Origin: a virus
Lineage: Duplodnaviria; Caudoviricetes
Reading direction: 5' to 3' (one strand)
DNA: 64,000 bases
IMG/VR virus record: IMGVR_UViG_3300013901_000005
Location: 32,001-96,000 of that record
The translations under genes and the position numbers were made by a program. The notes below the pieces were generated by a model that saw only the letters and a list, made by a program, of their open reading frames with translations, was not told the DNA's origin and made no database searches. How positions within the stretch are numbered: the first letter of the stretch is position 1; each line of letters opens with the position of its first letter. Below, one piece after another: positions 9,101 to 64,000 of the stretch.

Positions 9101-12100
9101 TAATATTGCGATTGGCGGCAAAAAACGGCCATACGTTCCTATATACAATAAAATATATCAATTTAATGAAAACGGCAAATTATTAAAAGTATGGAATAAT
9201 ATTTATGAGATTTCTGATTTTTTTGAAACGTGGAAGCAATCAATTTATAGTGCAATTAATAATAAACAAAGATTGTATGGTTTTTATTGGAGTTATCAAA
9301 AAGAAATATGCATAAAAGATTTTTCAAATTCAAATAAAAACAGAAAGGTTTACCAATATTCAAAAGATGGAAAATGTATTGCAATTTATAATAGTATTGG
9401 AGAAGCTAGTAAGATTCTGAATATTTCTTCATCAAATATTATAAATAATGTAAACAATGGGTCTTTAACAAAAAACGATTATTATTTGTCATACAAATTA
9501 TATGATCAATATGTTTGTAGACCAAGAATGGATTTAAAAAATAAAATATTGTATTTGTATGATTTAGACGGAAATTTCATAAATAATACAACATCAAAAG
9601 ATTTCAAAAAAAAATACAATATTCATTCATATAAAGAATTAGAAAATGCAATATTAAACAATAAACCAATTCAAAAAAACCAAATAAAATTAGAAAAGTT
9701 TAATAAAATAGAAAAATATATTCCAATTAATAAAAAGAAAAAAGTTGAGATTTATAAAACAAATAGAGATTTTGTCGCAGAATTTGACAGTGTATCAAAT
9801 GCATGTAGACAATTAAAATTAGACCGCTCAACAATTTCAAAAATATTAAGAGGATGTGCCAAACGAACAAAAGGATATACAATTAAATATAAAAATTAAA
9901 GATATAGTCTACTCTTTATAGTAATATAAAGTATTTAAGTGTTATTAAATAAAGGAAATGTGGATTAATTAATAGTTCACAAAAAATTTCTCTAATTGCT
10001 GGAAAACCTTTAGTGAGACAACCAGCAGCTAAAAATGAAAATCATTTTGGGTTCAACGACTAATTGAAAAATAATAATAAATAAAAAGGGAAATAAATTA
10101 TGGAATATATAGTTTACAAAACAATAAATAAAATTAATAATAAATTTTATATAGGAGTTCACAAAACTGAAAATTCTAAAATATTTGATGGATATATAGG
10201 ATGTGGAATATATATTAATAAAGCAAAATATATCAAATCGCCAAATACATATTTTTTAAAAGCAATTAAAAAGTATGGTACTGATAATTTTTATAGAGTA
10301 GTTTTAAAATCTTTTAATAATTATAATGATGCTCTAGATCTGGAAAGATGGCTAGTTACTGAAAAGTTTATTAAAGATAATAATAATTATAATTCTGCTA
10401 TTGGTGGAGGGTTGTCTCCAAAAAATAATAAAGAAATATATCAATATGACTTAAATGGTAAATTAATTAAAAAGTGGAACTCTATGGTTGATATTAATAA
10501 TGCATTTAAAACCCATATTCAAATGAGTTATATTATTAATAATAGAAGAAGTTTTGCCGGATTTCTTTGGTCATTTAATAAGAATATAAATATTGATGAG
10601 TATATTTTGCATAATAATAGAGGGTTTATATCTCAATATGATTCTAAATTTAATTTTATCAGAAAATTTAAATCTTCTAAAGAAGCATCTAAAATTTTAA
10701 ACATACCCTTAGGATCAATAATTTCTAGTGTTTTTAGAAGAAAAAAAATAGACGGTTTTTATTTTTTAAAAGCTGATTTTGATATTGACGAACTTTTTAA
10801 AGATGAAATAAATTATGTTTATCGACAAACAAAAATATTTCAATATAATGATGATGGGGACTTTATAAATGTATATAAATCGATTTTAAATTGTTCAAAA
10901 GAATTAAATTTATCCTATAATAAAATAAAAGAAATTATTAATAAAAAGGAAAAGTTTAATAATTATTATTTATCATATAGATATGATACATCATATTTTA
11001 ATATAAAATTTCCAAATAAAAAAGTAATAATAAAAGTTTTGCAATATGATAAAAATAATCGGTTTATTAAAGAATGGGATGATATTAAACAATTATTAAA
11101 AGAATACCCAGAAGCACTAAAAGTTTGTAGAAACAAATTAAAGACACATAAAAATTATATATTCAAATATAAAATAATTTAAAGATATAGTCTGATCTTT
11201 GCAGTAATGTAAAGTTAACATAAATGGTTAATGGCAAGGCAACAATCGTAGAGCCTGATACTCAGAGACCTATAAAAATATATGTAGGGGTAATCAGTGA
11301 TGATTATTATAAAATCTTTTGAATTGCTGGAAATCCAAATGGATAATCAGCAGCTATATTGATATATCAGTAAAGTTCAGAGACTATCCGGTTATGGAAT
11401 ACATAAAATATGGAAGCAAAAGATAACTCATAAAAATTAAATAAAGTAATTTATGAAATATATAGTATATTGTACAATAAATTTAATTAATAATAAAATT
11501 TATATTGGAGTTCACAAAATTGATCCCAAACAAGTTAATGATTATTATTTAGGTTGTGGATGTTTTAGCAATAGTCCAAAATCGTATAATAAAAGAAATA
11601 CTGCTTTTTGCTGTGCAGTCTCAAAATATGGGCCATCAAATTTTAAAAGGGAGACAATTAAAGAATTTGACACATTAGAAGAGGCGCTTGAACTAGAAAA
11701 AGAAATTGTTAATAAAACATTCCTAAAAAGAAAAGATATTTATAACCAAATAGAAGGTGGTGGTTATCCACCAACTTTAGAAAAAAAAGTGTATCAATAT
11801 AATTTAAATGGATACTTTATGATGGAATGGAAATCTATAAAATCTATTACTAATTATTTTAATATAAATAAAGATAGAATAAATATGGTTATAAAATCAA
11901 AACGATCTTTTAATGCTTGTTATTGGTCATATAAATACGTAATACGCTTAGATACCTCTAATTATCGACCGAGTTCAAGAGGCAGTATAAGAGTCTTTTC
12001 TAAAGATAAAAAATTATTATATAATTTTGAGAATACAACAAAAGCAGCAGAATTTTTAAATATTAGACGAGAAAAAATAACAAATGCTATATATGGTAAA

Positions 12101-14141: not shown

Positions 14142-14185
14142 TAATAACGATACAATAAATTAAAAAAATAGAAAATGAGATAAAC

Positions 14186-14217
14186 CCGGAGGAGCACAGT
14201 CTCCTCCGGTTATATTT
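14186..14217 (+). terminator. hairpin/terminator after the capsid gene
   Basis: CCGGAGGAG-cacagt-CTCCTCCGG, with a weak T tail. Confidence 0.6.
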
Positions 14218-14233
14218 AATGTTAAATGTATTA

Positions 14234-15106
14234 ATGATGGTAGCAAATAAGAAAGTCACAAAAGCAGATATTGTTTTTGATGATAAAATAATAACATTAA
14301 AAAGCACATATGACAAGGCTGGAATTAAATATTTCCTACAACCTTGTAAGAACAAATATGGCTAGTTTCCACCCTGTATTAAGAAAGTGAATTCACAGGG
14401 TGATATGATTATGAGTGAGAAGGAGCGCGACGCATATTCTGAAGGTCGTGCAGTATTCTTTCCAGAAAATCATATTTTTGTAGTTCAGAGCGGAAAGACT
14501 TATAATCTTGATGATCCCTACGATAAGGCGGAATGGGAGGCAATTGAGAATTGTCCTTTGATTGCGAAGAGCCGCGATGAGAAAGACGCAAACGGAAATC
14601 TTATTATTGATGGCCCACGTTCTACGGCATTACATCCGGCAAGATATGGTGTCGCAGAATTGTATGTCGATCGTCCTGGAGTTCAGGCACAGCGCCGAGT
14701 AACTCGTAAACAACTTATCCATAAGGCAGAATCGTTTATCTATGATGATCCTAGAGGTCTTGATGGACAGATGAATATTGCCCGTATTTTGGGTAAGGAT
14801 ATGAGAAATCAGCCTATTGCTGACGTTCTTGATTATCTATTGGATGTTGCAGATAAGGATCCGCAGAGAATTATTAATATCTATTCTGATGATATTTCAA
14901 CACAATTGATGTTTCTTGATGCAAAGGAGAAGCATATTATTGTTTTGAGAAACAAGCTATATTTCTATGGAGATAATATTGTCCTCGGTGCAACTGATGA
15001 GGCAGCACTTGCCTGGTTGCGAGAACCGAAGAATCAGAAGATAGTAGAACTGATAAAGAGAGACGTATATCCTGAGTTCTATTCGGAAGATAAGAATAAA
15101 AAGTAA
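14234..15106 (+). CDS. conserved crAss head-module protein (gene 75-like; TAG=Gln)
   Basis: Track ORF 14387..15106 extends upstream through one TAG; directly follows the MCP; start could be 14219, 14234 or 14237. Confidence 0.75.
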
Positions 15107-43100: not shown

Positions 43101-43384
43101 AGTAGGTAATTGATCAAGAACAACAACAAAAATAGTTTAAAGAAGACATTAATGCTTTGCTTAGCTTGTTTAATGATGATGTAATAAAGCACGAAATTGA
43201 AGCAAACCGTTTTTATCAAGAAGACATTGAGGCTTGTAGCAATTCAATAGATGATTTTAAATCATTTTTGTCAGCAGCTGGAGTAGATGAATTCAGAAGA
43301 ATATTACAAAAATATATAGGAAAACACAATATAACCAAAGAACTTATAGATAGATTAACAAGAATAGATGGAACTTGTTCATAA
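34121..43384 (+). CDS. giant virion protein (~3087 aa) with SF1 helicase-like P-loop domain (TAG=Gln)
   Basis: Nine track fragments share a frame; GAAGTGKT 38549-38572, IIIDE about 38891, SGDFDQ, YTGITRS about 39488; N-terminal hydrophobic Gly/Ala segments. Confidence 0.8.
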
Positions 43385-43399
43385 TAAAATAAATATAAT

Positions 43400-46300
43400 A
43401 TGATAACTTGTGCAATAACAATTCCGGCGATAATCGGAAAAGCAAGAATAATTTGTAAGTTATATGAATAGAATAACAGATCTGATGCTCGAAAATTAAT
43501 ATTTGAATTATGCCAATAGATAAAAAACAGTTCAAATAATGACGAATAGAGAAATCAATTTGTTAATAGTTTGATAACTTCTTTAAAAAGAAATGGTTCT
43601 ACAGTAATTGATCCAAATATCACATTTTAGTATTTAACTAATGTGATAATGTCTGATAACAGTTCAATGGAACATTTTGTAAGACAAAGCCGTACTAGCC
43701 AAATTTTTGATGATCCTGAAGAATTTTCAAATATTCAATAGGCTCCATTTAAATTTTTGGAAGATGCTTATGGAGGATCAAGTGCGAAAAAACCAGCTCT
43801 TAGTGAATAGGAGAATAATTTAATAGATGTGATTTTATTTGGGAGGCAAGGATTAAACTTGCCTCACCAAAGAGTTTTGAATATGACTCAATTAAATGAG
43901 AATATAAGAGCTTATCAAGAATATCTTTTTTAGAATATTGTAAAATATTTTGAATATTTGAAAGATAATATATTATAGAATAAGGCAAAAGCAAATATTG
44001 AAACTGATTTAAAAGAAATATTTGATTTTCCGCGTTTGTATATATCAAATGGCGGTTCTTTTGTAAATTCTGGACAATTAGATGTGTTACAGAAATATAT
44101 ATAGACTTATCTTAATTTATCACCAGACGCTCTTACGGATTTATACAATAATACTGCATATAAGAATGATGGTAGTTTTGATAAATTGAAATTAGATGCA
44201 TATAATTCATATGTCTTTTTATAGAATTACGATCATTTCCTTTTAAGTATTTTTGGAAAAAGTATTTAGATAAATGATTTTGGAAAATTAACTGGAAAGG
44301 ATAAATATACTTTAAATAAAGGAACTGGTAGGAATACTTCAAATTGGAATACTGATAATATGGATGTCTCTGAGTAGGCTGATGTACTCACCAAGTTAGT
44401 ATTGAACCATACACCATATTATAAAAACGGCTCAAATTCTCCAGTTATTGGAAAATTTATTTCATTTTAGAATTTTTAGCATATAACTGGAAAAATAAAG
44501 TCATTATATTTCAATCCTATATTTGCAACATTAGATTTTAAAAATCCTATTATACTTGCATAGTTTGGTTTATCAGAGGATGCATGGAAATATTTTGCTG
44601 GGAAAACTTTTAGATAGGCTCTCGCTGAAGTTAAATATAATTATAGGGACAGAATAGGATATATATATGAATTATTATTAAATAATCAATTTTATAATTA
44701 GTATAATAAAGTATTGAATAATCTTTTTACGGAAGATGAATTTAATATATTATATTCTACTTATAAAGAGATTTATCAGAAGGGTGCGAATAGTATTTTT
44801 GAATTATCCAAAATGCAAGGGTTATTTGATATGGCATCATATATATCGTCAACGGCAGTTGATATATATAATAACGAATTAGTATAGTTTTATCGTTCTT
44901 CAGATAATGATATTGTTGCTAGAACGCTTTCGGATTAGTCTGTTTCAAATATAAAAAGGCAATTCGAGGTTTCCCTACAATTATGGAATATGAAAGATCG
45001 TTTTTTAGATTATGATTTGTATTTAGGAAAACATTTTAGACAAATAACGGAAGAAATGACAAAGTCTGGAGTAAAGACAATAAAATTTGTTACAACTGAT
45101 GGATACACAATTAGTTATACGCCTTCTACTTTAAATGTCAATACAATGATTGATGATAAGAGGAAGTGGGATTTAATTAATCTTATTTTAAACCCATTAA
45201 ATTTAAATAACAATATTGATTTTTATAATTCATTTATATAGAAATATGATTCAAGAGAATAGGCCAATAGAGTTCTTTTTGGTCTTGCTATAAATGTTCT
45301 TGGAAATTCATATATATCAGCAAAATATATAGAGCCACTTAATAACAAAACAGATATAAATAATAAAATAACTGAATATTTTGGTACAAAAAGTGCCCCA
45401 AAATTTAACAATAAAACTCTTGATTTTATACATGGATATAATACAAAAGCACTTTAGAATCTAGCCAATACATAGGCTGATTTATCTGGTTTGACAACTG
45501 CTACTTTAGTTAAAAGTGGTGATAAGAAAAACCAAAATAAACAAACGCTTAGCCGATTATTTGGTTCATTTTTTGAGCAATTTGAATTATAGGATAAACA
45601 AGAGACATCAGCAGTACGCACACTTACTTTGTTGTCAAGCCCAAATTATTTTAAAGGAATTTTCTAGGCAAAAGAATATTTTGATTTCTTTGGAAATACA
45701 AAAGAAATTACAGATATGAACGCAGCAGAAATGTTTTTTCCAATGTTTATTACAAATTATATGACTTAGTATTCGCCGAATGGGAATTTCTTAGGTAATG
45801 GATTGGGCGCATTTCTTATTTCTGTAAATTCCGATAAACCTAATATAAGTTGTATGACAACTGATTTAAATGCAATAATATATAATGGGAAATCAATAAA
45901 CTAGATGTCTTCAGAAGAGCTAGATTAGCTTATTTCAAATGATTTTGGAAATGTATATTAGAATATTATAGAAAATGTATTATAGGATTTCGATACTTTT
46001 TATAATGCATTAAAAGTACAGGGAAATTAGGAAATTAGATTAATTTGGAAAAATAAAGCTGAATTGAGAAAAGACTTTTTTGATAATTTTTAGAAATTTA
46101 ATGCATATTGCAATGATAATAATATTTCTCCTAGTAACAAAATGTATGAATTACGAAGAGAATATGAAGATATTGATTAGCATGAGCCAATCAATTTCAT
46201 AGACCAAATTCATTACTATTCTGATAAATCTGGAAATATATGTTCAAATAAAACTTTAATAAGTCAATTATATAGATTTAAACCAGAGTATTTTAACAAA

Positions 46301-49300
46301 ATGAAAAAATCAGTTACAGAAGGAATGGCTGATTATAAATCTTTTTGGAAATACAAAGAATCTGAATTGCTATAGGGAATATTACGATATAATATAGATA
46401 TTAATACAATAGATTCTTTATAGGAAGGAATAAAGCAATTAAAAAATAGGTCTCATCCAACTGACCAAAACTTAGAAAATAGATGGATTGATAAAGCTGG
46501 TGATATTATATGGGCAAAATATCGCGAAAATGATGGAACTGTATATAATTTAACAAATTAGGATGACCTTAATAATTTAATTAATAGTTTAAGAGCAAAA
46601 TTTAAAACAAATTACGATGTTTCTACAATATTAACATATGATGGTTTTGGATCTTTAGATCTTCATCCTGAATTAAGGAAATACAATAAAATAGCGTATT
46701 TTAATTCGTAGTCATTTATGCTTTCAACAGTAGGTACCTTTGCTGCTCATCCTGGAAAAGGAAAATTTGCAAATGTGCTAGAAGAGGAAGCAGCTAGATT
46801 TAATGCTTAGCACAAAAGGAATGTGTCAATGACAGCAGCAATGCACTCATTCCTTTTAAATACAATAAATGGTGTACCTACAAAATATAATATAGCAATT
46901 ATAGAGGATGTAAATGATTATGCTTCTACAGTACATGGAGAAACATCAAAAATAACTGCATTTGATGGTGCTACATTTGTAAATCCTTTTATGGTAATTT
47001 TGGAAAATAATTCACTAGAAGGAAGTGCAGCTGGTGTTACGAAAAAATAGTTTGTACATTATTATAATAAAGAATATGGTACTGGTGGTATTATAAAAAC
47101 TGCTGGATTTGGTCTTACAAATGACTGGATAAGAAATTCTCCATATCTTTAGAGAATGATGGAAAAAATGACTGATAGGACCTGGCCTAGCATGATTGAT
47201 ATTATGGATAGTCGTTCGTATTATAGGGGTTTGGATCCAAAATCATTGTATAAACCAATATTCTTCAAAAGAGACGGAAAGTATTATACGATTGATTTAA
47301 ATTCTGTTCAAATGGATTCTCCATATCATTATAAATATACTATATGGTAGGTAGCTGAAAATGGAGAACCAATAAATGGAACTGATACAGATGGTGAAAC
47401 AAATATAACGTCAAATTATGATCTATGGAAATTCTTTGGTGGAGAATATTCAATGGAATTAAAAAATGGAATATTAAAATATTCTAATATTTCTGTTGAA
47501 TAGGTTGTTACCGCAATGAATGAAATTGGAACTGTATTAAATCCAAATACAAATACAAATACTGTTCTTACATAGGATGAAGTTTATCAACCATTAAAAC
47601 ATACTGATATTCATTATATTCCAACAAAAGGAGCTGTTAAATTTGGTGGCGCAAATATAAATACTGTTGAAACTTTCGAATCTGATGATTAGCCGTTGTC
47701 AACAACTAAAATAGAAATATTATAGGCTGGTATCTAGCTAGACAAAGAGCATCATGCCGATGATGCAGAAATATCACTTATGACGTAGGTTATTAGTGCT
47801 TGTGCTTCTTTGGGTTATACATATGATGCCGCGTCAAAAGTCTATTAGGCTTTAGCTGCTGCAAATATTAATAATACAAAAGAATATTACCAAGGACTTG
47901 TTTCACTATTTAATGGTGATAATTCACAAATAAAAGAGCTGATTAATAAAACCTTAATTGAAGAACTTGCAAATAGTAAAAGTGATAGTATTGCAAAAAG
48001 TATGGCATTATCATTATAGGAAAAGTTACGGAATGGAGAAGTAAAGATTTCTGATAATTTATTACCTTTAAGTGATAACACAATATATGCAAAACTTTTA
48101 TCTACAATTAATTCTTTCCTTACAAATTCTGGTATAAAATCAAAGATTCCAGGTATCCTTTCCGTTTTAACAACTAGTTTTAAAATAAACAAATTATATG
48201 CTGGAAAGAAATACGAACAATTTGATAATCCAGAACAGGAGTTAGAAATATTACAATAGCAAAAAATAAATAATCCAGAATTTGAAGACAATCTTCGATT
48301 AAAATCAGAAAACGAGACAGACGAAGAATATTATAATTATAGAAAATAGGAAATATTAAAAAACAATCCATTTGCAGGTCTTCGTTTTGGAACCACATAT
48401 ACAGTTAATTTCAAAGATGGTCAAACTATCCAATTAGAATTGGATACAATAGAAAAATATTAGAAATTAAAAAAAGATGTATTTTCTGGAAATGTTAGTA
48501 GCTTTTATGAAAATGTAAAAGTAGGAAGAAATCTAGCACCATATAATTCAAGGTTTGAAATATATGGTGATGGAGAAGAATCAATAAAAGCACAATTATG
48601 GGATATTGATTCAATTAATGATCTAAATAGGATTAACCATGCAATTAAGAAAAATGATATTGAAACAATAAATCAAATAGCACAATATTATTTAAGTGAA
48701 AATACAATTAAAATATTAAATGATGACTAGAAGATTAGATTACTTGTTAAGCGTGTAAATGCAAGACTTTAGCAGGATTTGTTAAATCTTTCTACTAATG
48801 TAAATTAGATTTATGATTAGTTTAAAGAAGCAGTTTAGATATTCCAAAATAAAGAAAATCCAGATATTAAAGATCTCTAGATGCTTTAGGATAAAATATG
48901 TATTTTATTCCGGTTAAACCCAAAAAGCAATCCAATAATTAAAAATGGAGAATTAGATAGAGCGGAATTTAATCGGATAGCACAATAGGCATTAAATACA
49001 CAAAAAGTTTCGATAGGCAGAAAATATTATAATATTAATAAAGATTCTATACAAATAGAACCATATGAAGTTATAATGTCTAAAACGTTCTAGTCTGCTT
49101 TTGGATTAGAAGATGATGTGTAGTTAAGTGATATAGTAAATGATCCATTATTCTTTTTAAAACAATATCAAAAAAATATTTAGGCAAAAGTAGATGATGC
49201 AAATTATGATATTGCATTTAAAATGTTTAATGGTAAGCATGTTTATATTATAAATCGAAATAGAGCAAATTTCCAAGATGCTACACAAATCATTCCAATG

Positions 49301-52300
49301 ACAACGAGAGATGATGAGGGAAATATATGGAGATTGGATTCAAATTACAATAAAATGTATTAGATGAATCCAAATGATATTATATATGAAAAAGATGGCT
49401 AGGGAATTATAGTTACAGATAATATTGATCAATATATCAATAATTTAAATTATGATGTTATATAGTTTTCTAGAGGTATTACCCAAAATTCGGAAAATGC
49501 AATAGAAACTTTACAAAATTATTTGAATTTATTAAAAGAATCAAATAATAATACTGCAAATAATATTTATAATGAATTAAATTACGAACTATATGATAGT
49601 GGTGTATTTAGCGCAAATTATGAGGATTAGTTTTTTGAAAATGTTAACAGAATTAATACTACAGATTTAAGTGATACTACTAGTTTTCTATATAAACGTA
49701 GTTAGGAAAAGTATAATTCGTTCTTAACAGCTTTAAATATTGTAGCAGCTCGTGTTCCAGCATAGTCAATGTAGTCATTCATGGCAATGAAAATAGTTGC
49801 TTTTGAAAACGCGGATGTCAATACAGTATATGTCAATACAATGTAGCTTCTTTTACAAGGTTCAGATTTTGATATTGATACAGTAAATCTTGTTACATAT
49901 GATATTAATAGCAATGGATTAATAGATTTGCCATCACCTTTTGCAAAAATAGATTCATAGGAACATATAATGTAGTCTTTTAGTCTTCCTTTCCCAACTG
50001 GAAGAACAATCTCTCTTGATGAAAAAATAAATTCATCAGATGCGATATATAGTATATTATCAAAATACAGAGGATTATTTACATTGAGTTTCCAGCAAAA
50101 TAAAGATGGATCCCTTAATTTTGAAAATGCAAATATAAATATTAATCCAGAGCAACTTGATTTGTTAGCTGAGTTCTTAAAAGATGGATCTGAATTGAGA
50201 TTGCTTGATGAAAATAATTTGGGAATTTCGTTTGAAAATCAAAATTATAATATTATATTTGGTCAAGACGAACAACAGTTTAATATTAATAATACACATA
50301 ATCTTAATATTATATTAAAAGCGCTTATATTACAAGTAGTTAACAAACATAATTTGTATTTTAACACATTATCTTATAATAAAATAGAAAGAATCGTAAA
50401 TAACTATTCAACAGCAAATATGATTGCAACTATACGGACTCCAATTAACCAATGGTAGGGTCACGTATCAGTAGATGGAACGACAGGCCCAATAAAAGAA
50501 ATTGGAAATCAATCAAATAATTCAAAATTGGTAAAAGAAAGAACCGCTGGTAATTTCTTAAATCAGATTGAAAGTATAACGGATAATTAGATTGGTAAAA
50601 AATGTATTGGTATTTGTGCCGTTGCCCTTAAATCGTTTTTTGCAACTACGCATTATTGCAATACAATATTAAATAATGGGAATTTAAATGAATAGTTTAG
50701 CCTTTATAATAATATTGCATTTACTGACAAAAATGGAAGACAAAACTATTACAAAGTAATTGCAAATATACGTGCTAAAAATGTAAATTCAATAACAAAT
50801 CAAGAATTATTAAGTGCAATTGCAACAGCACAATATAATGAAGAAGATGCAGCAGTATTATTAAGTGCCTTACTTTCTCTTAGTACGGATAATGCAAAAG
50901 AGCTTACACTGGCAAAATTAAATGCTGTTTAGTAGATGATTTCTTTATATTTGTATGGAATATCAATTGGAATACCATTTTCTGATCTTGCAAATACAAT
51001 TATGTCTCCTGCTGGAGATATTGTTATAAAAGCAATGTAGGGAAATATGTTTACTGGAAAAAGTGATTTTATGCGCATTTCTGATCCTGTATTTACTTTT
51101 ATAGAAAGTTGTGAGGACAAGAATTTATTGATGTTCAATAAAAGTTATCTTTCTACTAGTGATCGTATAATACCTGCATATAATAAATTGTTAGAATAGT
51201 TAAGAATAGAATATGATGATTAGCAATTTAAAAATAAATCTCTTGGCAGTATATTAGGTATATTGGTGTATTCTGGTAATAGTCCAAAAGATATAAGTGA
51301 ATTAATTGATAAACAAATTCATATAATATTAAGTAATGCTCCAAAAAATACAAAATAGCTACAATCAGTACAACAATTATATGCTTTAAAAAAACGGGCA
51401 ATGTAGGCAGTAGATAATCTGTATACTCTCGTATAGGATCCGGTATAGTCTAGAAATTATGATAATATAAAAACTCTTACAGAAGGAGCTTCGGAAATTT
51501 ATGTTTTAGGTAGACTATTAGGATTGAATTAGGGTATTAGAACAGAAGGTGCTAGGTATATTAGTTAGTTAAATACATTGAAGTATGCAGTTTATAATAA
51601 AAAAGTTGCTTAGGATCGAAGTCATGACGATATTATTGATATTGAAAAATATTGTGTAGATCCAGAATATAGAGCATAGTGTATTAAAGAATATGAATCT
51701 GTAAAAACTGCAATAAATATTCTTGATGTGCTTAATAAAAGTCCACATTTTAGTTCTTATCTTGCAAATCTAGCAGAAAGTTTAGCGATACATAAGTAGG
51801 GATATAAATTTAGAACTATTTATAATAATGTATTACAATTATCAGAAGAATTTAAAATTCCATAGGATTAGGCTACAAGAGGATTAACAAATCTTATAGG
51901 AGATACAATAATCAACAATTATTTATAGGGAAATAATATATCTGTTGTAATAGATGCTGGAGCAAGATTATTTACATCGGAAGAATCTTCTGTTATTGTT
52001 TAGGCGCCTAGTAAAATAAGACTTGGAAATTCATTGAATAATGCCACTTTTAAAAATTGGGTAGAAACTAATCTTATTGCAGAATTAAAAGAACGGCCTG
52101 AGTTAAAAGATAATAAATTTATTTAGGATTTAGTATATGATTTAAATACTAGGACAATTTCTCATAATCCAGAAAATATAATAACCCTTCCATCGACAAT
52201 GCTTCCAAGAACAGATGCGGAAAGGACTTTGTTTAATGAATATAAATAGGCATTTAATCAGTTATCAATATATACTAAAAATGGAATTCCACTTACAGAT

Positions 52301-53014
52301 ATATTTATTTTATATGGAATGATTGTAAATAAATGGAAACTTTCAGAACGTTCTTTAGTTCCTTTGTTTTAGGATTTTAAAGGCACTGGGCTTATTAATA
52401 AATTTTATAAATACGAAACGGATCTAGATGCCAGTGGCGATTCTTTGGATATAGAAAATATGAATGAAAATTTAAAGGCTGCTTATTTAGCGAAACCAGA
52501 AAGTCCTTATTATTCCAGAGCAAAATACATATGGTATAAAGATCCAGAGTCGAAGTTATATAAATTAATGAAACATGTATTTGTGGACACATCTACATAT
52601 GGAGAAGACTTTTAGGATTTTGATTTTTCAGATTTTGATCTGATGGATACTGATTTTAGCCCAATAGATGAAAACAACCTAGGAAGGGTAATACCAAAAG
52701 ATTGGGAGATAATGTAGGAAATTCCAAATCCAAAGAAATTCCCTACTGGTGATTTGTTTAAAGAAAGTACAATTATTAAGCGTATAAATAATGAAGCTGG
52801 ACTTGGTATTGGAATAGAATATTATAATAATGGAGATATTAAACGTATCCAAAAATTTGAGCGTAAAAATGGTCATTGGGTTGTATCTAAAGAAATTTCT
52901 GATTTATATATTAATAAAAATAAATTATTAATGCGAGATCCTGGAACAAACTAGATAGTACCAAATGAAGAATTAATATAGAATATGATTTAGGAAAATT
53001 CTTGTAAATTATGA
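43400..53014 (+). CDS. virion RNA polymerase of crAss-like phages (~3204 aa; TAG=Gln)
   Basis: ARVPAQSMQS and GSDFDID (49865-49879) catalytic motifs; also FDGATF, GIQLDKEH and LSLSTDNAKEL. Confidence 0.88.
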
Positions 53015-54069
53015 GTTGTATAAATACAAAAACCAGCGAGTACCAGACCCTCGAAAAGAGGGCTGGTAACTCTGCTTTATATCTTGAAGGCTAGAGTTCT
53101 AGATATATGGATAAATATGGAAGGCTCCCATATCTTGATGAAGTTATGGGAGCAGATTCTAGTAAATTTCTAAAAAAAGAATTAAATATTAAAGGAAGAA
53201 GTACAGATATTAAAAATATATTAGATTATACAAAATCAGATAGTATAGAAGAATCAGTAATAAAAATTAATGATTAGTTTAGAGACTAGGAAACACAGAT
53301 TCTTCCGATGAATAAAAAGGCACTTGTCATATAGACAAAAAGGCCAGAGGTTGGATTGGATATTGATGATAATTTAAAATAGATAGACACTGCTTCTTCT
53401 AGTCCACTTATCATGAATAATATGCTATAGAAACTTTCCGATTTATATGGTATTAAATTTCACGAAATATCAAATTAGGAACTTTTATCAGATGAATGGG
53501 CAGATAAAATAGAAAATGGCCATTTAGTCAAAGGATTTGTTTATAATGGGGAAATATATATAAATATAGATAATGCTACAGTAGACACAAAAATTCACGA
53601 ATTAATGCATATATTTGTTGGAGCAATGAGATTTTAGGATCCAAATATATATTAGCAATTAGTAGATTCTGTATAGAGTTTTGAAAATTACGATTATTTG
53701 GTTAGCTAGTTTCATAATCGTACAAGATCAGATATTAATGAGGAGATTTTTGTAGAGGAAGTATCAAAATATATTGCAGGATAGCCTTCAAAAATAAATG
53801 AGTTATCTGAAAAACTAAGGCATGAAATAGAATATAATGTAAATAGAGTGTTAGATTCTTCGCTTATGGGGAGCTATACTGTAAAAGCAATATAGAAAAA
53901 TAGAATTGGAAATTTAACTTTAAAATAGGCTGCAAAAATTACAAATTCTGAATTATGTTAGAACAGAACGGAATAGATAATTGAATTAAAAAATTCTGAA
54001 TTACATAGAAAATTAAATAATATAAAATCAGAATTACTAGAAAATGGATCATTAATAGAATAGTGTTGA
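53011..54069 (+). CDS. zincin-like metallopeptidase-domain protein (352 aa; TAG=Gln)
   Basis: KGFVYNGEIYIN...HELMH (53596-53610)...EEIFVE. Confidence 0.75.
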
Positions 54070-54070
54070 T

Positions 54071-57000
54071 ATGGCTTGTGTATATTTATATAAAAATCAT
54101 ATATTTAAAAATGAGAATGAGCTAGATGATTTTATATTAGACTCATTACCTTATGAATCAAAATATGGAGATTTAGTATTTTAGGTTACAAAGGAATAGA
54201 TGCGGGTTATAGATTAGATAGAATAGATTAACACAACAAATAAATAGTTAAAAGAAAAAGCCAAAGAATGGCGTAAAAATAATAAATATATATATGGAGA
54301 GGATGGCGAAATGACTATTTCCGATCCACCCTATATTGGTGTTACCAGTTTCCTTTCTGGTTTAAAAAATTCAAAAGGAGAACTTCTTTTCCCAGAATTT
54401 AGGGAAAAAGAATATTGGGAAAGAGAATTTCAAAATTGGGAAACTGGAAAATTCAGTGATTCCGAAATAGAGGAATTTGGAATTGATAAGGATAATCCAC
54501 CAAAAATAACAGATCGTGTAGAATAGGAAGCGAAAATGAACCAAATGAAAAATAGGTGGAAAAATCAGGCAGAAATAGGTACTGCAATCCATAATGTTTT
54601 TCAAATTATTTTTCAAAAAGATGGTGATAATTATAATTTTACAAAATCAGAAAATGATTTAAAATTATATATATTAAAAAATTTAGAACAAAAAAACAAG
54701 AAATTTATTACAGATAATGTATTAAATAATACAATTAAATACGCATTAGAATTTAAAGATAAATTATAGAAAGAATTAGATGATGAAGATTTACAATTTT
54801 ACACAGAGCTCTAGTTGGCATAGGATGCGGTAAATCCAGAAACTGGTAAAACGTAGACGCTTTTTGGTATTATTGACCTATTGATTGTAGATAGTAAAGG
54901 CAAATGCCATATTCTCGATTATAAAACTTCTGTGCATAATTATGCAGATTTTGGTGCTCCAAAAAAATATGCGTATAGTTATCAGATAGCTACTTACCAG
55001 CGTATGCTAGAAAGATAGGGCATAAACTCATATGAAGGAAAATTATTTATAGCTCCAGTCCATTTATTAGGATTTAAAAAGAATGGAAACGAATATTCAA
55101 TAGATGGAATTGATACAGAATCTGTTCTTATAAATCAAGGGTTAGAAATGTCATAGGAAAAAGTGTTAGAAAATATAGAAGACTTTATGCCAGCACCTTT
55201 TTCAGTAAATGTAGGAACAAAAGATATAAACGAGACTGACTCTAAATTTATGTCTGCATGTTTTAAAGACTATTCTGATTCTAGAGTTGTTGATGAAAAA
55301 TCAACAATAAAATTTCTTAAAGATCGCGGTATTCTTACACCAAATGAAAATGGATTATATAGATTTTATAAACATGATAAAGATTCGGTTATCGAAACAA
55401 ATGATGAGGAATCTTTTATTAAATAGGTTACTACTTATTTTAGAACACTTCCAAAAAAACGTTTAGTACTTACTGGGCAGATAAAAGACGCTCTTAAAAA
55501 GGGAATGAAAGATGGTTATAAATCGATGGATTTACCAAGTATCCGGTATAAAGACAATGCCAAAGACTTGAATTGGCTATAGGATATGCTTAAAATATAT
55601 TGTGATGGAAATTGGGAAGTTGTTGATAAACCAGAAATAGAAGGTTTTGGTCTTATAATGTTAAAAACAAAAGGAGAACCAAAATAGATTGACTTTCTTA
55701 GAGTATGTACAAATAACCTATCTGAAAATTATACTACATATATGCAAAAAGACAATCCATTTCGTTCCAGAACTGGACTAACTGGAGCTTTTTAGACTGA
55801 TATTGAAGCTATTTCAAAAGGCGGAAACATACGTATGCATGATGGATTTAACATATCAGAATCAAAAACACTTATGGCTGAAGCAACATAGGGAAATATA
55901 GAACTTATGGAATCAATGGCAATTATTAATTGCCTTACTGGATTGGAAGGGCATATTATAGGACGTATATAGGCAGTAAATCCTGTATATGGAAATGGTA
56001 TGTCACTTTCAAACGAATAGCTTATGTATTGTTTTTCAGAACTTACAAAACTAGATCCGACACATTCTATAGAAAATAATAAATTTGATACTGGAGAATT
56101 AAAATTAGCCACTAAATACGAAATAGCAAAATAGGATTTCAGACTTATAATGTAGGCAGCAGAAAACCATGATTATAAGGATGAATACGCAGGATTATAG
56201 AAATTTAAATCAGCAATACCAGTATTTTTATAGGATATAGAAGGTAATACACAAAAGAAAATAGAGGCGCTTTAGAAAATTTTGGATAAATTAAATGGAG
56301 ATAGGACAATAGCTTCGAAATTGCAAAGATATTCTACGCATTTTTCTGAAAATAATGAGGCTTACAGACAGTTATATAATGATATATTAATTGCAATAGC
56401 ATAGTTAAAAGGTATTAATTTCAGATAGCAAATTTCCGATAATAGTAAATTTATTGAATCTATAAGAATATGGGAAAACGGTCTTTCCGGAACAAATATA
56501 GACAATCCTGGAAATATGAAGTCCGAAACTTTAAATTCAATACAATAGTTATTAAAAGAGGCATATTAGAACACTAGAAACGAAATGCAGAAATTCAGAG
56601 TAGAAGTAGAGGAAAAATTACATAATTTCAAAAAAGCAAAAGATTTTTCTGCTATTAAATAGAGAGCATTTGGAAATTAGACAAAATTATATACTGATTT
56701 ATATAGGGAAACTAAGAATGGAGATCTATTATTTAAACGTGAAGATGAACTTTAGGATGATGCATCAAAAAGGCTGCTTAGATATGCGCTTGATATTATT
56801 AATCATAATAGATATCCACTTAAATCTGAAAAAGAACTGCAACAAATGAGAGATAATGGAGATTATGATTATTATAAAGTTCCTCTTCTTATAGGAGATA
56901 GATAGTCTAGAATTGCCTTAAAAGGCATAGTATATGGATTTAAAGATTTTTTAAAAATTCTTAATCCACACGAGGCATATCGTAGAACAAGACAAAGGTT

Positions 57001-59815: not shown

Positions 59816-60472
59816 TTACCATTGTATCCAGGTTAAACAATTTACGTTATTCTGTATCTGATATTCTATTTTTGATTTTAATTCCAAAAATGATATTGGC
59901 CTATAATAGTTAAAATCAACTCCTACGTCATATTGATTTGGGAAAAGTAATTTTAACCTTTCGAAATCCTTTCCAGTATTCTTATCTTTAAATACATTTA
60001 AATGAACGTGGCCAAATAATTGCCAAGGCTGATTATTCTTTTTATATGTACCATCAAGGCATAAATATGGATAATGATTTAAATATATTTTTTGATCATC
60101 AATTATAAGTGTCATTTGCTCACTAACTCCATCAAAAAGTTTCATTGTTTTCTCTCCAGGATATCGACTTCGATCGTGATTTCCTAAAATTAGATAATGA
60201 TAACCATTTAATTGATTCAAAAGTTCTTTCCAGCGCCCGTTTGAAGCAAATGCAAAATCTCCTAAATCAAACACGATATCATTAGGTTTGACAAATCTAT
60301 TCCAGTTTTGAATAATATTTGAATCCATATCCTCGGTTGTTTCCCAAGGTCTTTGACAAAACTTTAGAATGTTTTTATGTCCAAAATGCAGTTACAGGTC
60401 GGAGGTGAACCATATATTCACCTCCGACGACTTCAAAATTAAAGGTTTAACATTTTTAAATATATTTTCCAT
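59816..60472 (-). CDS. calcineurin-like metallophosphoesterase interrupted by an in-frame TAA (recoded gene or pseudogene)
   Basis: MENIF...IWFTSDL*LHFGHKNI...LGDF...GNHD...NHYP...GHVH; all other metal-binding motifs are intact. Confidence 0.82.
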
Positions 60473-61331
60473 AAATTTTTATAATTTTAGTTATATTAGA
60501 TGTGGATGTATTAAATTTTTTCGATATATCTTTATTTCTTATTCCAGCTTTATAAGCCTATAAGACTTTTTCTCTTAATCTAGATGCGATAACATATTTA
60601 CTAGTATAATTTAAATTAATAATATCCCATTTTCTAGTTAAAATAGGTATATTTAAACTAAGTATTTTAATTTTTAATTTTTTTAGATCTTCTGTATTTG
60701 AAATTACAAGATTAGCATATCCGCTAGAATTTAATCTAGTTAAATTTTTATCAGAAATCATATTATTAAATTCTTTTAAAATAGATATCCAACTAGAATG
60801 ATTTTTTATTGTTAAATAAAAATCTTTTCTATTGAATTGATTTTTAATGCTACCATCACCATCTATAAACCCTGCTAATAAAGCATAAGTTAAATCTATA
60901 TTAAATTTTAATATCGTATTTGGAGGATTATATGTTTTCTTATCCTTAATATCAAATTTTTCTTTTATTTTACTAACTGTATCTATATCTTTATAAGCTA
61001 TTGAAATAGATTTATCTGTAACACGAATCATTCCAGTATAATTTATAAATTTAGCAAATTTATATAAATGATTAGAATCTTTAATACTTAATGTCAATAC
61101 CAATCTATTATTACAAAAACATCCATCTGCTAGCAAAAACCCCATCCAATAAAATGCCTCTGGAGTATCTAACAATAAATTAGATAAGTTTGCACAATGT
61201 TTTTCTTTCTATTTTTCTTTGCCAGCACAACTTTTGCATATAGAATTGGCTTTAATAGCATGATTATATGTTATTTCATTTTTATATATTAATCTTTTTC
61301 CACAACTTAGACAAATTCTTTCAAATTTCAT
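60456..61331 (-). CDS. free-standing double-motif LAGLIDADG homing endonuclease with N-terminal CxxC..CxxC and C-terminal HTH-like tail (TAG=Gln)
   Basis: YWMGFLLADGC and LLAGFIDGDGS motifs; frame extends through two TAGs to ATG 61331 and TAA 60456. Confidence 0.82.
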
Positions 61332-61415
61332 AACATTTATATTTTAGCATATAAAAAATAAAATTATTTATAAATAATCAATTTGTTATTTGTGACAAAA
61401 AATATTCTTCATTTG

Positions 61416-61658
61416 TCATTTTACCCATTCTTTTATTTTATCAACTGTCATTACTCCAGTAAATTTATCAACGACTTTATTATTTTCTATTTTTACAAGA
61501 GTTGGGATACTATGAATTTCATATTTATCAACAATATCTTCAGATGATGGATCTGTAGCATCTATTGATATATATTCTATTCCAGCTGATTTTAAATTCA
61601 TATCAAGGGCTTTGCATGGCCCACAGGTTGGTGAGAAAAATTTAATTATTGTTGCCAT
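61416..61658 (-). CDS. thioredoxin/glutaredoxin-like protein
   Basis: KFFSPTCGPCK and SIPTL motifs. Confidence 0.88.
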   Translation of the reverse strand: MATIIKFFSPTCGPCKALDMNLKSAGIEYISIDATDPSSEDIVDKYEIHSIPTLVKIENNKVVDKFTGVMTVDKIKEWVK

Positions 61659-61827
61659 TTTCTTTGTTAATTTCTACTACTTTTTTTAATGTTTCAATTG
61701 TTTCTGCAAATAAAGATATATATTCTTCTGGTATATTAAGAAGTTCTTTATCTATCTGCATATTTAAATAATCTACAAAATGATTTCTTAAATCATTTGT
61801 ATATTTTCCAGGATAGTATTTTGGCAT
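61642..61827 (-). CDS. hypothetical protein
   Basis: 61-aa ORF coupled to both neighbours. Confidence 0.65.
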   Translation of the reverse strand: MPKYYPGKYTNDLRNHFVDYLNMQIDKELLNIPEEYISLFAETIETLKKVVEINKENGNNN

Positions 61828-62411
61828 TATACAAAATCTTTTAATATTACAATATGTTCTGCTTTTTTATCTTTTAATTCATCGAAATAATTGGAATAAT
61901 TCTTTTCCTTTAATTTATTAAAAAGATATGGTCCTAATATCCATTCATACCAATGTTTTGCGTCTACTGAATAATGTTTTTCCTGTAATACAAAACTAGA
62001 TGGTATATATTCTTTCCAATCCCAGAAAGTTATTGCATTATCTAATTTTAAATCAAAGTTTTTACTAATAAATTTTATTATTTCCTTAAATAATTCAGAT
62101 AGTCTATCCGCATTTTCTGGCTTTTCTCTATAATCCAATAAAATCCGAATACTAACATCCTGATAATCTATTTCTTCTAGAGCTTTGAATAATCTTTCTT
62201 TATAAATCACATTATTATGGCAAATCCATGGAATATAACCTATATTCGTATCATCTATTTTAATCCTAAAATCAAAATATCTGACACCTTCATTATACTG
62301 TTCTTTTAATGTTTTATTTTGACATTTAGTCCATGGACGAAGAATCGTCATCCACCATTTCTTTTCTTTTAGATAAGTTGCGGAATTATGACTTCCTATC
62401 ATTTTTAACAT
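61827..62411 (-). CDS. PI-PLC X-box-like phosphodiesterase
   Basis: IGSHNS, CQNKTLKEQYNEGVRYFDFRI and ICH motifs. Confidence 0.75.
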   Translation of the reverse strand: MLKMIGSHNSATYLKEKKWWMTILRPWTKCQNKTLKEQYNEGVRYFDFRIKIDDTNIGYIPWICHNNVIYKERLFKALEEIDYQDVSIRILLDYREKPENADRLSELFKEIIKFISKNFDLKLDNAITFWDWKEYIPSSFVLQEKHYSVDAKHWYEWILGPYLFNKLKEKNYSNYFDELKDKKAEHIVILKDFV

Positions 62412-62428
62412 ATATTAATTAATAATTG

Positions 62429-62593
62429 TTAATCTATTAAAATCTTTCCTCGCAATCTTTCAGACCATTTATTATTTAGTATTTCGACCCTACTTACTGT
62501 TGCATAAGCAGGGCCGTCAAATACTATAACATCACGATTTAATTCACTTTCAGAAAGTTTTTGTAATTCCTTTATAAGTTCTTTTCCTGTCAT
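62429..62593 (-). CDS. small hypothetical protein (54 aa)
   Basis: MTGKELIKELQKLSESELNRDV...; ATGA overlap with the upstream gene. Confidence 0.65.
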   Translation of the reverse strand: MTGKELIKELQKLSESELNRDVIVFDGPAYATVSRVEILNNKWSERLRGKILID

Positions 62594-62826
62594 ATTTCTA
62601 TTATTTTAGAAACGCAAGTTTCAAATAATTTTTTACCATTATCTAGTTGTAAAACATAATAAAGATCTTCCTCTGTCTCGCACATTCCAATAAGTGTTCC
62701 CTTGATATTTCCATATGTTTTATATCGTTTTCCTATATTTTTCCCAAACTCTATAAACCAATCTGGTAACTCCTTGTGGTTTTTTAAATCTTTGTACGAC
62801 GAGTAAATAATTTCATATTGTTTCAT
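62590..62826 (-). CDS. hypothetical protein
   Basis: 78-aa ORF in the operon. Confidence 0.7.
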   Translation of the reverse strand: MKQYEIIYSSYKDLKNHKELPDWFIEFGKNIGKRYKTYGNIKGTLIGMCETEEDLYYVLQLDNGKKLFETCVSKIIEI

Positions 62827-62829
62827 ACT

Positions 62830-62988
62830 TTAATTGGTAAATTCTGTTGTAACATAATCATTTGAATTTAATACAATTTGTTCATTTTTATATAATTCCT
62901 TTGCTATACGAATTGCTTCATGTTCATCGTCAGCTTTTATTGGAACTGTTCTTGAAAGTGTTTCGGTTATTTTAATATAATATTTCAT
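62830..62988 (-). CDS. DpnD/PcfM-like small protein (52 aa)
   Basis: MKYYIKITETLSRTVPIKADDEHEAIRIAKELYKNEQIVLNSNDY. Confidence 0.7.
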   Translation of the reverse strand: MKYYIKITETLSRTVPIKADDEHEAIRIAKELYKNEQIVLNSNDYVTTEFTN

Positions 62989-62990
62989 AA

Positions 62991-63512
62991 TCAACTAAAT
63001 TCTGTAAATGCTGAAAATCTCAAACCATCCGAAAAGAAATAATTTCCTATTTGACTAATTCCTAATTCTGGTAACAAATTGTTATATTGAATATATTCAT
63101 TACTATTGGTTCCATCTTCCCCATCTGGACACCAATTTATAGCCATATTCATAAATTCTTCTGGTGTAAATTCATGTTCAGATTTATTGTTATCGTATTT
63201 CCAATATTCATCTATTATTTTTATATTTGGTTTTGATAAAAACTCCAATATTGATTTTTTGTTAAAATCATAATAAGTTTTTATTTTGCCGTTATATTTA
63301 TAAATATTTGGATCCCATAAGAATTTCCATCCTGAAGAACGTTTTCCTAAATGTAGTATTCCATAATTACTGGGATTGTAATTATCAATATCACGATATG
63401 ATATATTATACAATTCCTGTATATTGTCAATATCGTCATTTTGAATTGCATTTATTAATTTTTGCTTTCTTTCTTTTGTTGGTAAAATTACCGCATAATA
63501 ATTTGTTCCCAT
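62991..63512 (-). CDS. hypothetical phage protein
   Basis: 173 aa; MGTNYY...LHLGKRSSGWKFLW...EFS. Confidence 0.75.
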   Translation of the reverse strand: MGTNYYAVILPTKERKQKLINAIQNDDIDNIQELYNISYRDIDNYNPSNYGILHLGKRSSGWKFLWDPNIYKYNGKIKTYYDFNKKSILEFLSKPNIKIIDEYWKYDNNKSEHEFTPEEFMNMAINWCPDGEDGTNSNEYIQYNNLLPELGISQIGNYFFSDGLRFSAFTEFS

Positions 63513-63513
63513 A

Positions 63514-64000
63514 TTATTTCTTTAAAAGTTTTCTGACATTTTTTGCCAATTCTCTAGCCATAGGATGAGCGTGCGGATTATCTCTTCTATATAAAAAATT
63601 ATTCCAGCAATCATCAAATCCGCATAATACCAATTCTGATTTTACAGATAATGGCAAAAGTTGTCTAGCTTGTTCTGCTTTCCATCCAGATTTTAATAAT
63701 ATCATATATTCTGATTCCGCAGATCTTAATCCTAAAAGAAAATTATTTATTGCTAAATTTTCATCATACGATCTTGGTATGTCATTCTCATCACACCATT
63801 GCCCTCCAAAATGTCTATATTCACCTTCTGGAATGTTAATCCAATTTGGTATAACAAATGTTACCTCGTTTCCAAATTTATCCTTATTATATGAACAAAA
63901 CCTAGTAGATTCTGCTATACTTGACATTCCAACATGCGTTCTAAAGGAATCCATTGTCACCCTATCGGTTATAAAATGGATTGTATGCCTCTCTGGAAAT
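63514..64000 (-). CDS. thyX: FAD-dependent thymidylate synthase (5' truncated by the window)
   Basis: ESTRFCSY, AEQARQLLPL and RRDNPHAHP motifs. Confidence 0.82.
   Translation of the reverse strand, partial: FPERHTIHFITDRVTMDSFRTHVGMSSIAESTRFCSYNKDKFGNEVTFVIPNWINIPEGEYRHFGGQWCDENDIPRSYDENLAINNFLLGLRSAESEYMILLKSGWKAEQARQLLPLSVKSELVLCGFDDCWNNFLYRRDNPHAHPMARELAKNVRKLLKK

Follow-up and report, generated by a model that had tools for sequence, protein, structure and literature searches.

Paired terminal cysteines in adjacent cargo proteins of crassviruses suggest a head-to-tail disulfide chain

The window analysed here is a stretch of 64,000 nucleotides (positions 32,001 to 96,000 of IMG/VR record IMGVR_UViG_3300013901_000005; Duplodnaviria, Caudoviricetes) within the 155-kb genome of a crAss-like gut phage. 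It encodes four consecutive, presumably capsid-packed cargo proteins, P1 to P4, which carry a cysteine at each of the six termini that face inwards across the three junctions of the block and at neither of its two outer ends. P1 is a helicase-like giant, P2 a putative virion RNA polymerase (RNAP), P3 a small zincin-like protein and P4 a giant with a nuclease domain (Table 1). This arrangement points, short of proof, to disulfide bonds that would join the four proteins in a single thread to be packaged and injected. Judged from the sequences, a head-to-tail disulfide chain has the strongest support among the readings considered and is fairly probable. The initial annotation of this DNA had raised the same idea with a metal clasp as an option; comparative tests of conservation, adjacency and gene fission or fusion favour the disulfide chain, whereas the clasp has become less likely because each terminus holds only one cysteine.

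Read with TAG as glutamine, P1 begins MDEKK and ends DGTCS, with Cys3086 encoded at 43376-43378. P2 begins MITC and ends NSCKL (Cys4 at 43409-43411 and Cys3202 at 53003-53005), P3 begins MSC and ends IEQC (Cys3 at 53017-53019 and Cys352 at 54064-54066), and P4 begins MAC (Cys3 at 54077-54079) and ends TFDAD. The termini quoted in the initial annotation are thus reproduced exactly, as is its observation that terminal cysteines are limited to the three internal junctions in gene order, and its interval of 43376-54079 extends from the codon of P1 Cys3086 to that of P4 Cys3. Its description of the proteins as cysteine-poor agrees with counts of 8 cysteines in 3087 residues for P1, 15 in 3204 for P2, 3 in 352 for P3 and 9 in 1595 for P4, or 0.42% of 8,238 residues overall. 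Among the other 25 open reading frames (ORFs) of the window a cysteine lies within four residues of the end at one of 50 termini. On composition alone the analytic probability of a cysteine at all six inner termini amounts to 2.3e-11, and in 200,000 permutations four or more of the six were never obtained, which excludes chance. An AlphaFold2 (AF2) model of P3 (predicted local distance difference test, pLDDT, 86.7) places both of its terminal cysteines in flexible coil tails outside the predicted fold. The single other ORF with a terminal cysteine (1436-2362, + strand) encodes a protein of 308 residues that contains 2.9% cysteine, ends GNCGCV and is read through 7 in-frame TAG codons.

Table 1. 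Features of the cargo block and of related loci. Coordinates are those of the window or, where a locus number is given, of that locus.
Feature	Coordinates	Strand	Basis or remark
Upstream protein, 995 aa	29276..32263	+	TAG=Q ORF, 0 Cys; context only, outside the proposed chain
Upstream protein, 619 aa	32260..34119	+	1 Cys, at neither terminus; context only
P1, helicase-like giant, proposed first link, 3087 aa	34121..43384	+	AAA_30 domain, translation
P2, putative virion RNA polymerase, proposed second link, 3204 aa	43400..53014	+	Catalytic motif, translation
P3, HExxH zincin-like, proposed third link, 352 aa	53011..54069	+	Invariant HExxH, translation
P4, PD-(D/E)XK nuclease-domain giant, proposed last link, 1595 aa	54071..58858	+	Pfam PDDEXK_1, translation
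LAGLIDADG ORF at RNAP break, L001	14512-15216		
LAGLIDADG ORF at RNAP break, L009	5770-6474		
LAGLIDADG ORF at RNAP break, L060	2043-3134		
LAGLIDADG ORF at RNAP break, L062	2986-4053		
Prototype crAssphage gp47, L108	5588-8161		Only Cys at -2
crAss002 gp30, L111	6393-8066		Only Cys at -8
cr8_1 gp90, L117	1354-4902		Cys5 among five Cys

The terminal cysteines are conserved in relatives of the window and are paired by adjacency, as the initial annotation would lead one to expect. The P3 alignment was used to retrieve and anchor 80 viral loci, a P3-alone pattern search having given no viral loci, and these were reduced to 38 non-redundant gene blocks in which the termini were counted; tblastn with P3 and P4 had returned only 2-3 unannotated phage records. 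A cysteine is present at the C-terminus of P2 (37/37), at the N- and C-termini of P3 (36/38 and 37/38, respectively) and at the N-terminus of P4 (35/35), and it occurs at the C-terminus of P4 in one of 35 cases. The two P3 N-terminal misses are start miscalls, and the exceptions in these counts stem from wrongly called starts or genetic codes or from a truncated ORF: first-ATG starts masked the N-terminal cysteine in loci L003/4, L032 and L053, and in L056-58, which use the standard code, reading with another code fuses genes falsely. The N-termini of P2 diverge too much for their alignment to serve as a query for loci, and the P1/P2 junction was therefore studied in upstream DNA taken from the genomes of 15 diverse relatives which together with L001 make up a set of 16. 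All 16 P1 proteins have a cysteine among their last ten residues, typically in a terminal C-P-x-x-I-K-I-K-F (one clade has it at -1), and none has one at the N-terminus. The P1 of the window stops one residue past its cysteine (GTCS and stop, 43340-43384), where most relatives add an 8-residue strand-like tail; the tail is thus either dispensable or was lost in the lineage of the window.

Conservation holds at 13-46% identity. The 120 P3 homologues found in databases, which share 36-95% identity, have N-termini of the form M-x(0-3)-C-[IV]-N-K and C-termini of the form L-x-E-x-C-x(0-1), and in an alignment of 31 sequences C3 and C352 are invariant alongside H196, E197 and H200, while E350 is at least 90% conserved. 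A full-length alignment of 10 P2 sequences with 22-37% identity has invariant C4 and C3202, whereas none of the 13 other cysteines of P2 is at an invariant position. The terminal cysteines are as invariant as the catalytic residues. The first 38 residues of P2 in the window hold C4, C19 and C38, and only C4 is kept in relatives. Some P3 homologues of 520-600 residues (P0017, P0019, P0021, P0032, P0037 and others) contain an insertion of about 200 residues that matches Pfam PF18760 and keep both terminal cysteines, which indicates that the small zincin link can take up a further domain and still preserve both termini.

Tabulated across Crassvirales with gene fusions and fissions included, as the initial annotation had proposed, the cysteine pairs come and go with the gene boundaries. 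Cultured crassviruses were located with crAss001 gp50 as the probe, and Crevaviridae lie outside this sample. Across the families sampled there are as many cysteine pairs as there are boundaries between proteins, and the pair is gone where a junction is fused. The window and its relatives have four proteins and three pairs, whereas phi14:2, crAss001, DAC15 and IAS virus have three proteins and two pairs. In phi14:2 gp078 ends in its single cysteine, the solved RNAP gp077 contains two, at position 3 and at -2, and gp076 has one at position 3, such that all 4 cysteines in the 5,398 residues of the trio are terminal. In crAss001 gp47 has one cysteine (-3), gp50 has Cys5 and a cysteine at -9, and gp49 has one at position 5. 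Two proteins with one pair are found in Intestiviridae, in Suoliviridae (cr50_1, cr1_1, cr109_1, cr60_1 and cr7_1) and in Flavobacterium phage FpV1, which lies outside the order as defined by the International Committee on Taxonomy of Viruses and encodes gp33 (4401 residues, single cysteine at -2) and gp34 (starting MAC). Among the two-protein phages, prototype crAssphage has a gp45 that ends SFSCM and a gp44 that starts MSC, and crAss002, cr8_1 and cr271_1 belong to the same group; for crAss002 gp33 the true start probably lies 32 codons downstream of the annotated one. The rule that cysteines mark the facing ends of neighbouring cargo proteins is confirmed in every Crassvirales family sampled. 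In crAss001 the gp47 and gp50 genes are convergent and lie about 11 kb apart, yet their cysteine pair is kept, which excludes an artefact of start and stop contexts or of translational coupling.

A different kind of gene break bears no such marks. ORFs for LAGLIDADG endonucleases interrupt the RNAP gene of many relatives exactly within its catalytic motif (LQGS / DYDID), some with helix-turn-helix (HTH) domains, and no terminal cysteine is found at these breaks. Rfam at gathering score gave no group I or group II intron RNA there, and the mobile-element reading consequently rests on the LAGLIDADG ORFs and on the report of intron-encoded endonucleases in the RNAP block, where the question of splicing was raised for the Zeta group (Yutin 2021). 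An alignment of the crAss001 gp47 C-terminus with the P3 profile (hhalign) is not significant beyond the HExxH helix, and for this reason gp47 is not claimed by homology to be a fusion of P1 and P3.

It is proposed that disulfides in the virion join the C-terminal cysteine of each cargo protein to the N-terminal cysteine of the next, with P1 Cys3086 bound to P2 Cys4, P2 Cys3202 to P3 Cys3, and P3 Cys352 to P4 Cys3. The product would be an unbranched pseudo-polypeptide of 8,238 residues in which the helicase-like P1, the RNAP P2, the zincin P3 and the nuclease P4 follow one another. Cysteine depletion elsewhere in the proteins, as in other ejected phage proteins, would leave no further cross-links to hinder unfolding. 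Such a chain would ensure co-packaging at a ratio of 1:1:1:1 and the proteins could be pulled one after another through the tail channel, after which thiol reductants of the host would free the individual enzymes in the cytoplasm. The pattern places one thiol at the C-terminal end of each protein and one at the N-terminal end of the next but leaves the outer ends bare, and the simplest function that can be assigned to it is a heterotypic disulfide; since ejected proteins are generally purged of cysteine, those that are kept at the termini are more likely to be functional. The sequences establish the arrangement of the termini, its conservation, its change with gene boundaries and its agreement with the signature of a disulfide solved in phage A4; from these the bond itself, the choice of partners, the place and time of oxidation and a role in packaging, ejection and release are inferred. 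The phage is uncultured, and P1 to P4 are presumably virion proteins that are ejected into the host, judging by synteny; the homologues in crAss001 and phi14:2 were found in virions by mass spectrometry, and the crAss001 virion has structural disulfides in its tail and portal vertex (crAss001 atlas).

A precedent for a bond of this type is found in cyanopodophage A4 (Anabaena phage A-4L), in which the cryo-electron microscopy structure of the pre-ejectosome contains a disulfide between gp27 Cys1715, in a C-terminal helix, and gp26 Cys5 (PMC12002296; PNAS 2025). In the A-4L genome both genes are adjacent and co-directional and both proteins have a single cysteine: gp27 (1717 residues) ends DNPCQF and gp26 (1114 residues) starts MSKHC. 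Like the cargo proteins discussed here, these are capsid-internal ejection proteins from adjacent genes, the only cysteine of the upstream protein lying 3 residues from its C-terminus and the only one of the downstream protein at position 5. The local motifs also resemble those of crassviruses, in which upstream proteins can end in NPC and downstream proteins can start MSKRC, MAKKC or MGKC. The window has the same signature, with a C-terminal cysteine upstream, a cysteine at positions 3-5 downstream and cysteine-poor proteins encoded by adjacent genes. The A4 system differs from the window in that it has one link between two proteins rather than up to three, and in that the linked pair includes neither an RNAP nor other enzymes. 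Unlike crassviruses, A4 belongs to the Saffermanviridae and infects an oxygenic host, and its authors interpret the bond as stabilising a ring and not as part of an ejection thread (PMC12002296). BLASTP of A4 gp26-29 against the cargo of the window or of crAss001 gave a best E-value of 0.11 and thus no detectable homology, which implies that the likeness is functional or convergent and not one of family membership. By analogy, the chain of several links may be regarded as a multi-link extension of the single head-to-tail disulfide of the A4 type.

The closest counterparts of the block are gp47-gp50-gp49 of crAss001 and gp078-gp077-gp076 of phi14:2, the latter named gp67-gp66-gp65 in the RNAP paper, where gp66 is the solved RNAP. 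Like the block in the window, they come after the tail genes and two cysteine-free cargo proteins, comprise a giant RNAP that bears the GSDFDxD motif and, somewhere among their proteins, a zincin domain, and have the same topology of terminal cysteines. The window differs in that its block is split in four, with the zincin as a separate link of 352 residues that has a cysteine at both ends, and in that helicase and PD-(D/E)XK domains are present; sequence similarity is confined to the catalytic segment. Terminal cysteines are not mentioned in the crAss001 atlas, the phi14:2 RNAP preprint, Yutin 2021 or the N4 ejection paper, and no description of a terminal-cysteine rule for crassviruses was found in the literature, in which targeted searches returned only the A4 and crAss001 papers.

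The cargo of phages T7 (gp14/15/16) and N4 (gp50/51/52) is likewise packed in the capsid and leaves it in unfolded form via the tail, before the DNA or along with it, and shows extreme depletion of cysteine. There are none in T7 gp15 and gp16, nor in N4 gp50 (the virion RNAP of 3500 residues), gp51 and gp52. N4 also resembles the window in having a giant virion RNAP among its ejected proteins, although in N4 the functions of the RNAP reside in one polypeptide. As neither phage has terminal cysteine pairs, any ordering of ejection there would be non-covalent. N-terminal cysteines occur in T7 gp14 (L122), where the only cysteine is at position 2 (MCW), and in the N4 tail-tube protein gp54 (L124), which starts MSC; the other T7 and N4 ejection proteins examined are free of cysteine.

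Several observations weigh against a disulfide chain. The cargo is not resolved in the crAss001 maps and no S-S bond between these proteins has been seen directly, nor does the phi14:2 RNAP paper speak of a disulfide. Conditions in the host cytoplasm, as in the gut, are reducing, and the bonds would have to form within the capsid or following release. The assignment of partners is not unique, as the middle proteins may cyclise or termini may pair homotypically, and the A4 proteins, lacking detectable homology to those of crassviruses, offer a precedent by analogy. Intestiviridae encode a cargo-like protein upstream of the block that has a terminal cysteine without an obvious partner (Table 1). 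The distance of the P1 cysteine from the C-terminus ranges from -1 to -10, while the other C-terminal cysteines of the block lie at -1 to -3. One control also has a weakness, in that other ORFs of the loci show a C-terminal cysteine in 11/35 cases within a 10-residue window, a high rate that is partly due to intron-split gene fragments and cysteine-rich endonucleases.

The alternatives that fare best accept that the cysteines form links and differ in chemistry or partner. In one of them, which appears unlikely, the head-to-tail topology is the same and the link consists of a shared metal ion (a clasp of Zn, Fe or Cu) or of other thiol chemistry, with conserved neighbours completing the site. 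Conserved acidic or polar residues do adjoin the cysteines, as in the L-x-E-x-C that closes P3 and the N-P-C near the end of P2, and a clasp, unlike a disulfide, could form in a reducing cytoplasm. However, there is a single cysteine per terminus and no cluster of histidines and cysteines, the four terminal cysteines of phi14:2 are the only ones in its trio, and the sole solved case with this signature, A4, is a disulfide. A further possibility, which seems equally improbable, is that disulfides are formed with other partners by N-to-C cyclisation of the middle proteins, homotypic dimerisation or links to portal or capsid-interior proteins. N- and C-terminal cysteines are equal in number, such that cyclisation combined with one link between P1 and P4 also fits, and inter-subunit disulfides are used by the portal-vertex and tail proteins of crAss001. 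The lone terminal cysteine of the Intestiviridae cargo-like proteins, which has no neighbour in the block, points the same way. On the other hand, homotypic or anchoring models leave the cysteine-free outer ends unexplained in every architecture, phages with two proteins have no middle protein to cyclise and still possess the C/N pair, and the A4 link is intermolecular and runs from C- to N-terminus.

It is slightly less likely again that the terminal cysteines are marks for recognition or processing, such as a signal for packaging into the procapsid, a site that is trimmed or sensed by the zincin, or a redox sensor that activates the enzymes after entry. A zincin domain always accompanies the block and the RNAP has been proposed to need activation after ejection (phi14:2 RNAP paper), but marks of this kind would explain neither the strict alternation of C- and N-terminal cysteines nor the loss of both on fusion, and the sequence near the cysteines is otherwise poorly conserved between families. 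Coincidence, or a nucleotide by-product of start and stop contexts in overlapping, translationally coupled genes, has next to no probability left: all six codons in the window are TGT, five of them in a TTGT context beside tight gene junctions, yet this explanation is refuted by the comparative data, given a probability of about 2e-11, the use of both TGT and TGC and of varying offsets in relatives, the crAss001 genes on opposite strands 11 kb apart, and conservation in protein at less than 30% identity. Two further candidates were rejected. Split inteins or trans-splicing find no Hint or intein domain in P1 to P4 in Pfam, and cysteines 1-3 residues from the very ends leave no room for intein halves; a bacterial lipoprotein lipobox (L-x-x-C) would need a hydrophobic leader, a signal peptide of about 15-25 residues, which is impossible with an N-terminal cysteine at position 3-5, often after Lys or Arg (MSKRC, MGKC).

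A disulfide chain would bear on the arrangement of megadalton cargo within the capsid and on its passage through the tail. A sequence rule that predicts which ends are joined offers a simple bench test and gives a reason for the fluid gene boundaries in the block, and it supplies a criterion by which genuine protein termini can be told apart from breaks due to introns or inteins and, in recoded genomes, from wrongly called starts. The rule also suggests a redox-controlled release step for the virion RNAP. If true, chaining by terminal cysteines would be a podophage ejectosome device that is detectable from sequence alone. In a broader and more tentative form, held with slightly less than even confidence, crassviruses and FpV-like Flavobacterium phages would deliver their entire set of early-infection enzymes, the virion RNAP included, as one disulfide-stitched pseudo-polyprotein whose links are cut in the reducing host cytoplasm, a redox-triggered step of release and activation, with links re-tuned whenever genes fuse or split; the same solution would have arisen independently in A4 and would represent a general device of podophage ejectosomes.

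The reading of the four genes depends on the genetic code. ORF calls on the region with the standard code (table 11) and with table 4 gave no giant ORFs, and reading TAG as glutamine yields the four consecutive ORFs on the + strand. The same genome encodes a tRNA with the anticodon CUA (G000:C1:151589-151662, outside the window), and glutamine makes up 21.9% of the residues that standard-code relatives align to TAG codons of the window, compared with a background of 2.9% (7.5-fold enrichment); together these argue that the recoding is real. The CUA tRNA gene adjoins genes for tRNA-Thr, tRNA-Gln(UUG) and tRNA-Leu, and there are no tRNA genes inside the window. In-frame TAG codons read as glutamine are confined to the late or structural block (15126-58858, + strand), with up to 102 per gene, whereas presumably early genes (8799-15106, + strand, and 59816-64000, - strand) have 0-2.

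The helicase, RNAP, zincin and nuclease labels that the initial annotation gave to these proteins are reasonable, although the basis for them is a set of motifs and of weak matches to known domains. Residues 1468-1627 of P1 match Pfam AAA_30 (E=2.5e-8) and residues 165-343 of P4 match Pfam PDDEXK_1 (E=2.7e-8). P2 contains the crAss-type RNAP catalytic motif, LQGSDFDID, at residues 2152-2160, of which Q-G-S-D-x-D-x-D is invariant across 10 homologues. In hhalign, residues 2110-2165 align with residues 1314-1370 of the phi14:2 RNAP, the DFDID segment (56 columns, E=4.9e-4, probability 32%), and this catalytic segment is the only alignable part, as phmmer and a 10-sequence profile search of P2 against the PDB, including the phi14:2 RNAP (PDB 6VR4 family), gave no match. 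Crass RNAPs are extremely divergent among themselves (Yutin 2021). The zincin-like motif of P3 is HELMH at residues 196-200; Foldseek with the predicted P3 structure gave no significant match, the weak matches to Zn-peptidases having probabilities of at most 0.44, and Pfam had no match for P3. PHROGs gave no match for any of P1 to P4, P3 included, and megablast of the region against phage records returned nothing.

Two proteins precede the block in the window. The upstream protein of 995 residues is probably the first-ejected cargo, judged by its position, which is also the sole basis on which it may be equivalent to crAss001 gp45, and by position the protein of 619 residues resembles a cargo-protein-2-like gene product. 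Homologues of both sit before the block in 15 relatives and are essentially cysteine-free with no terminal cysteine: those of the larger protein contain none, as do those of the smaller with the exception of a single homologue that has one. Downstream, among the minus-strand genes, lies an ORF for a thioredoxin of 85 residues (about 61419-61670, - strand; PF00085, 47 bits, E=2.9e-13). Annotated thioredoxins are also present in prototype crAssphage and cr8_1, and it may be speculated that they are linked to the formation or reduction of the proposed cargo disulfides.

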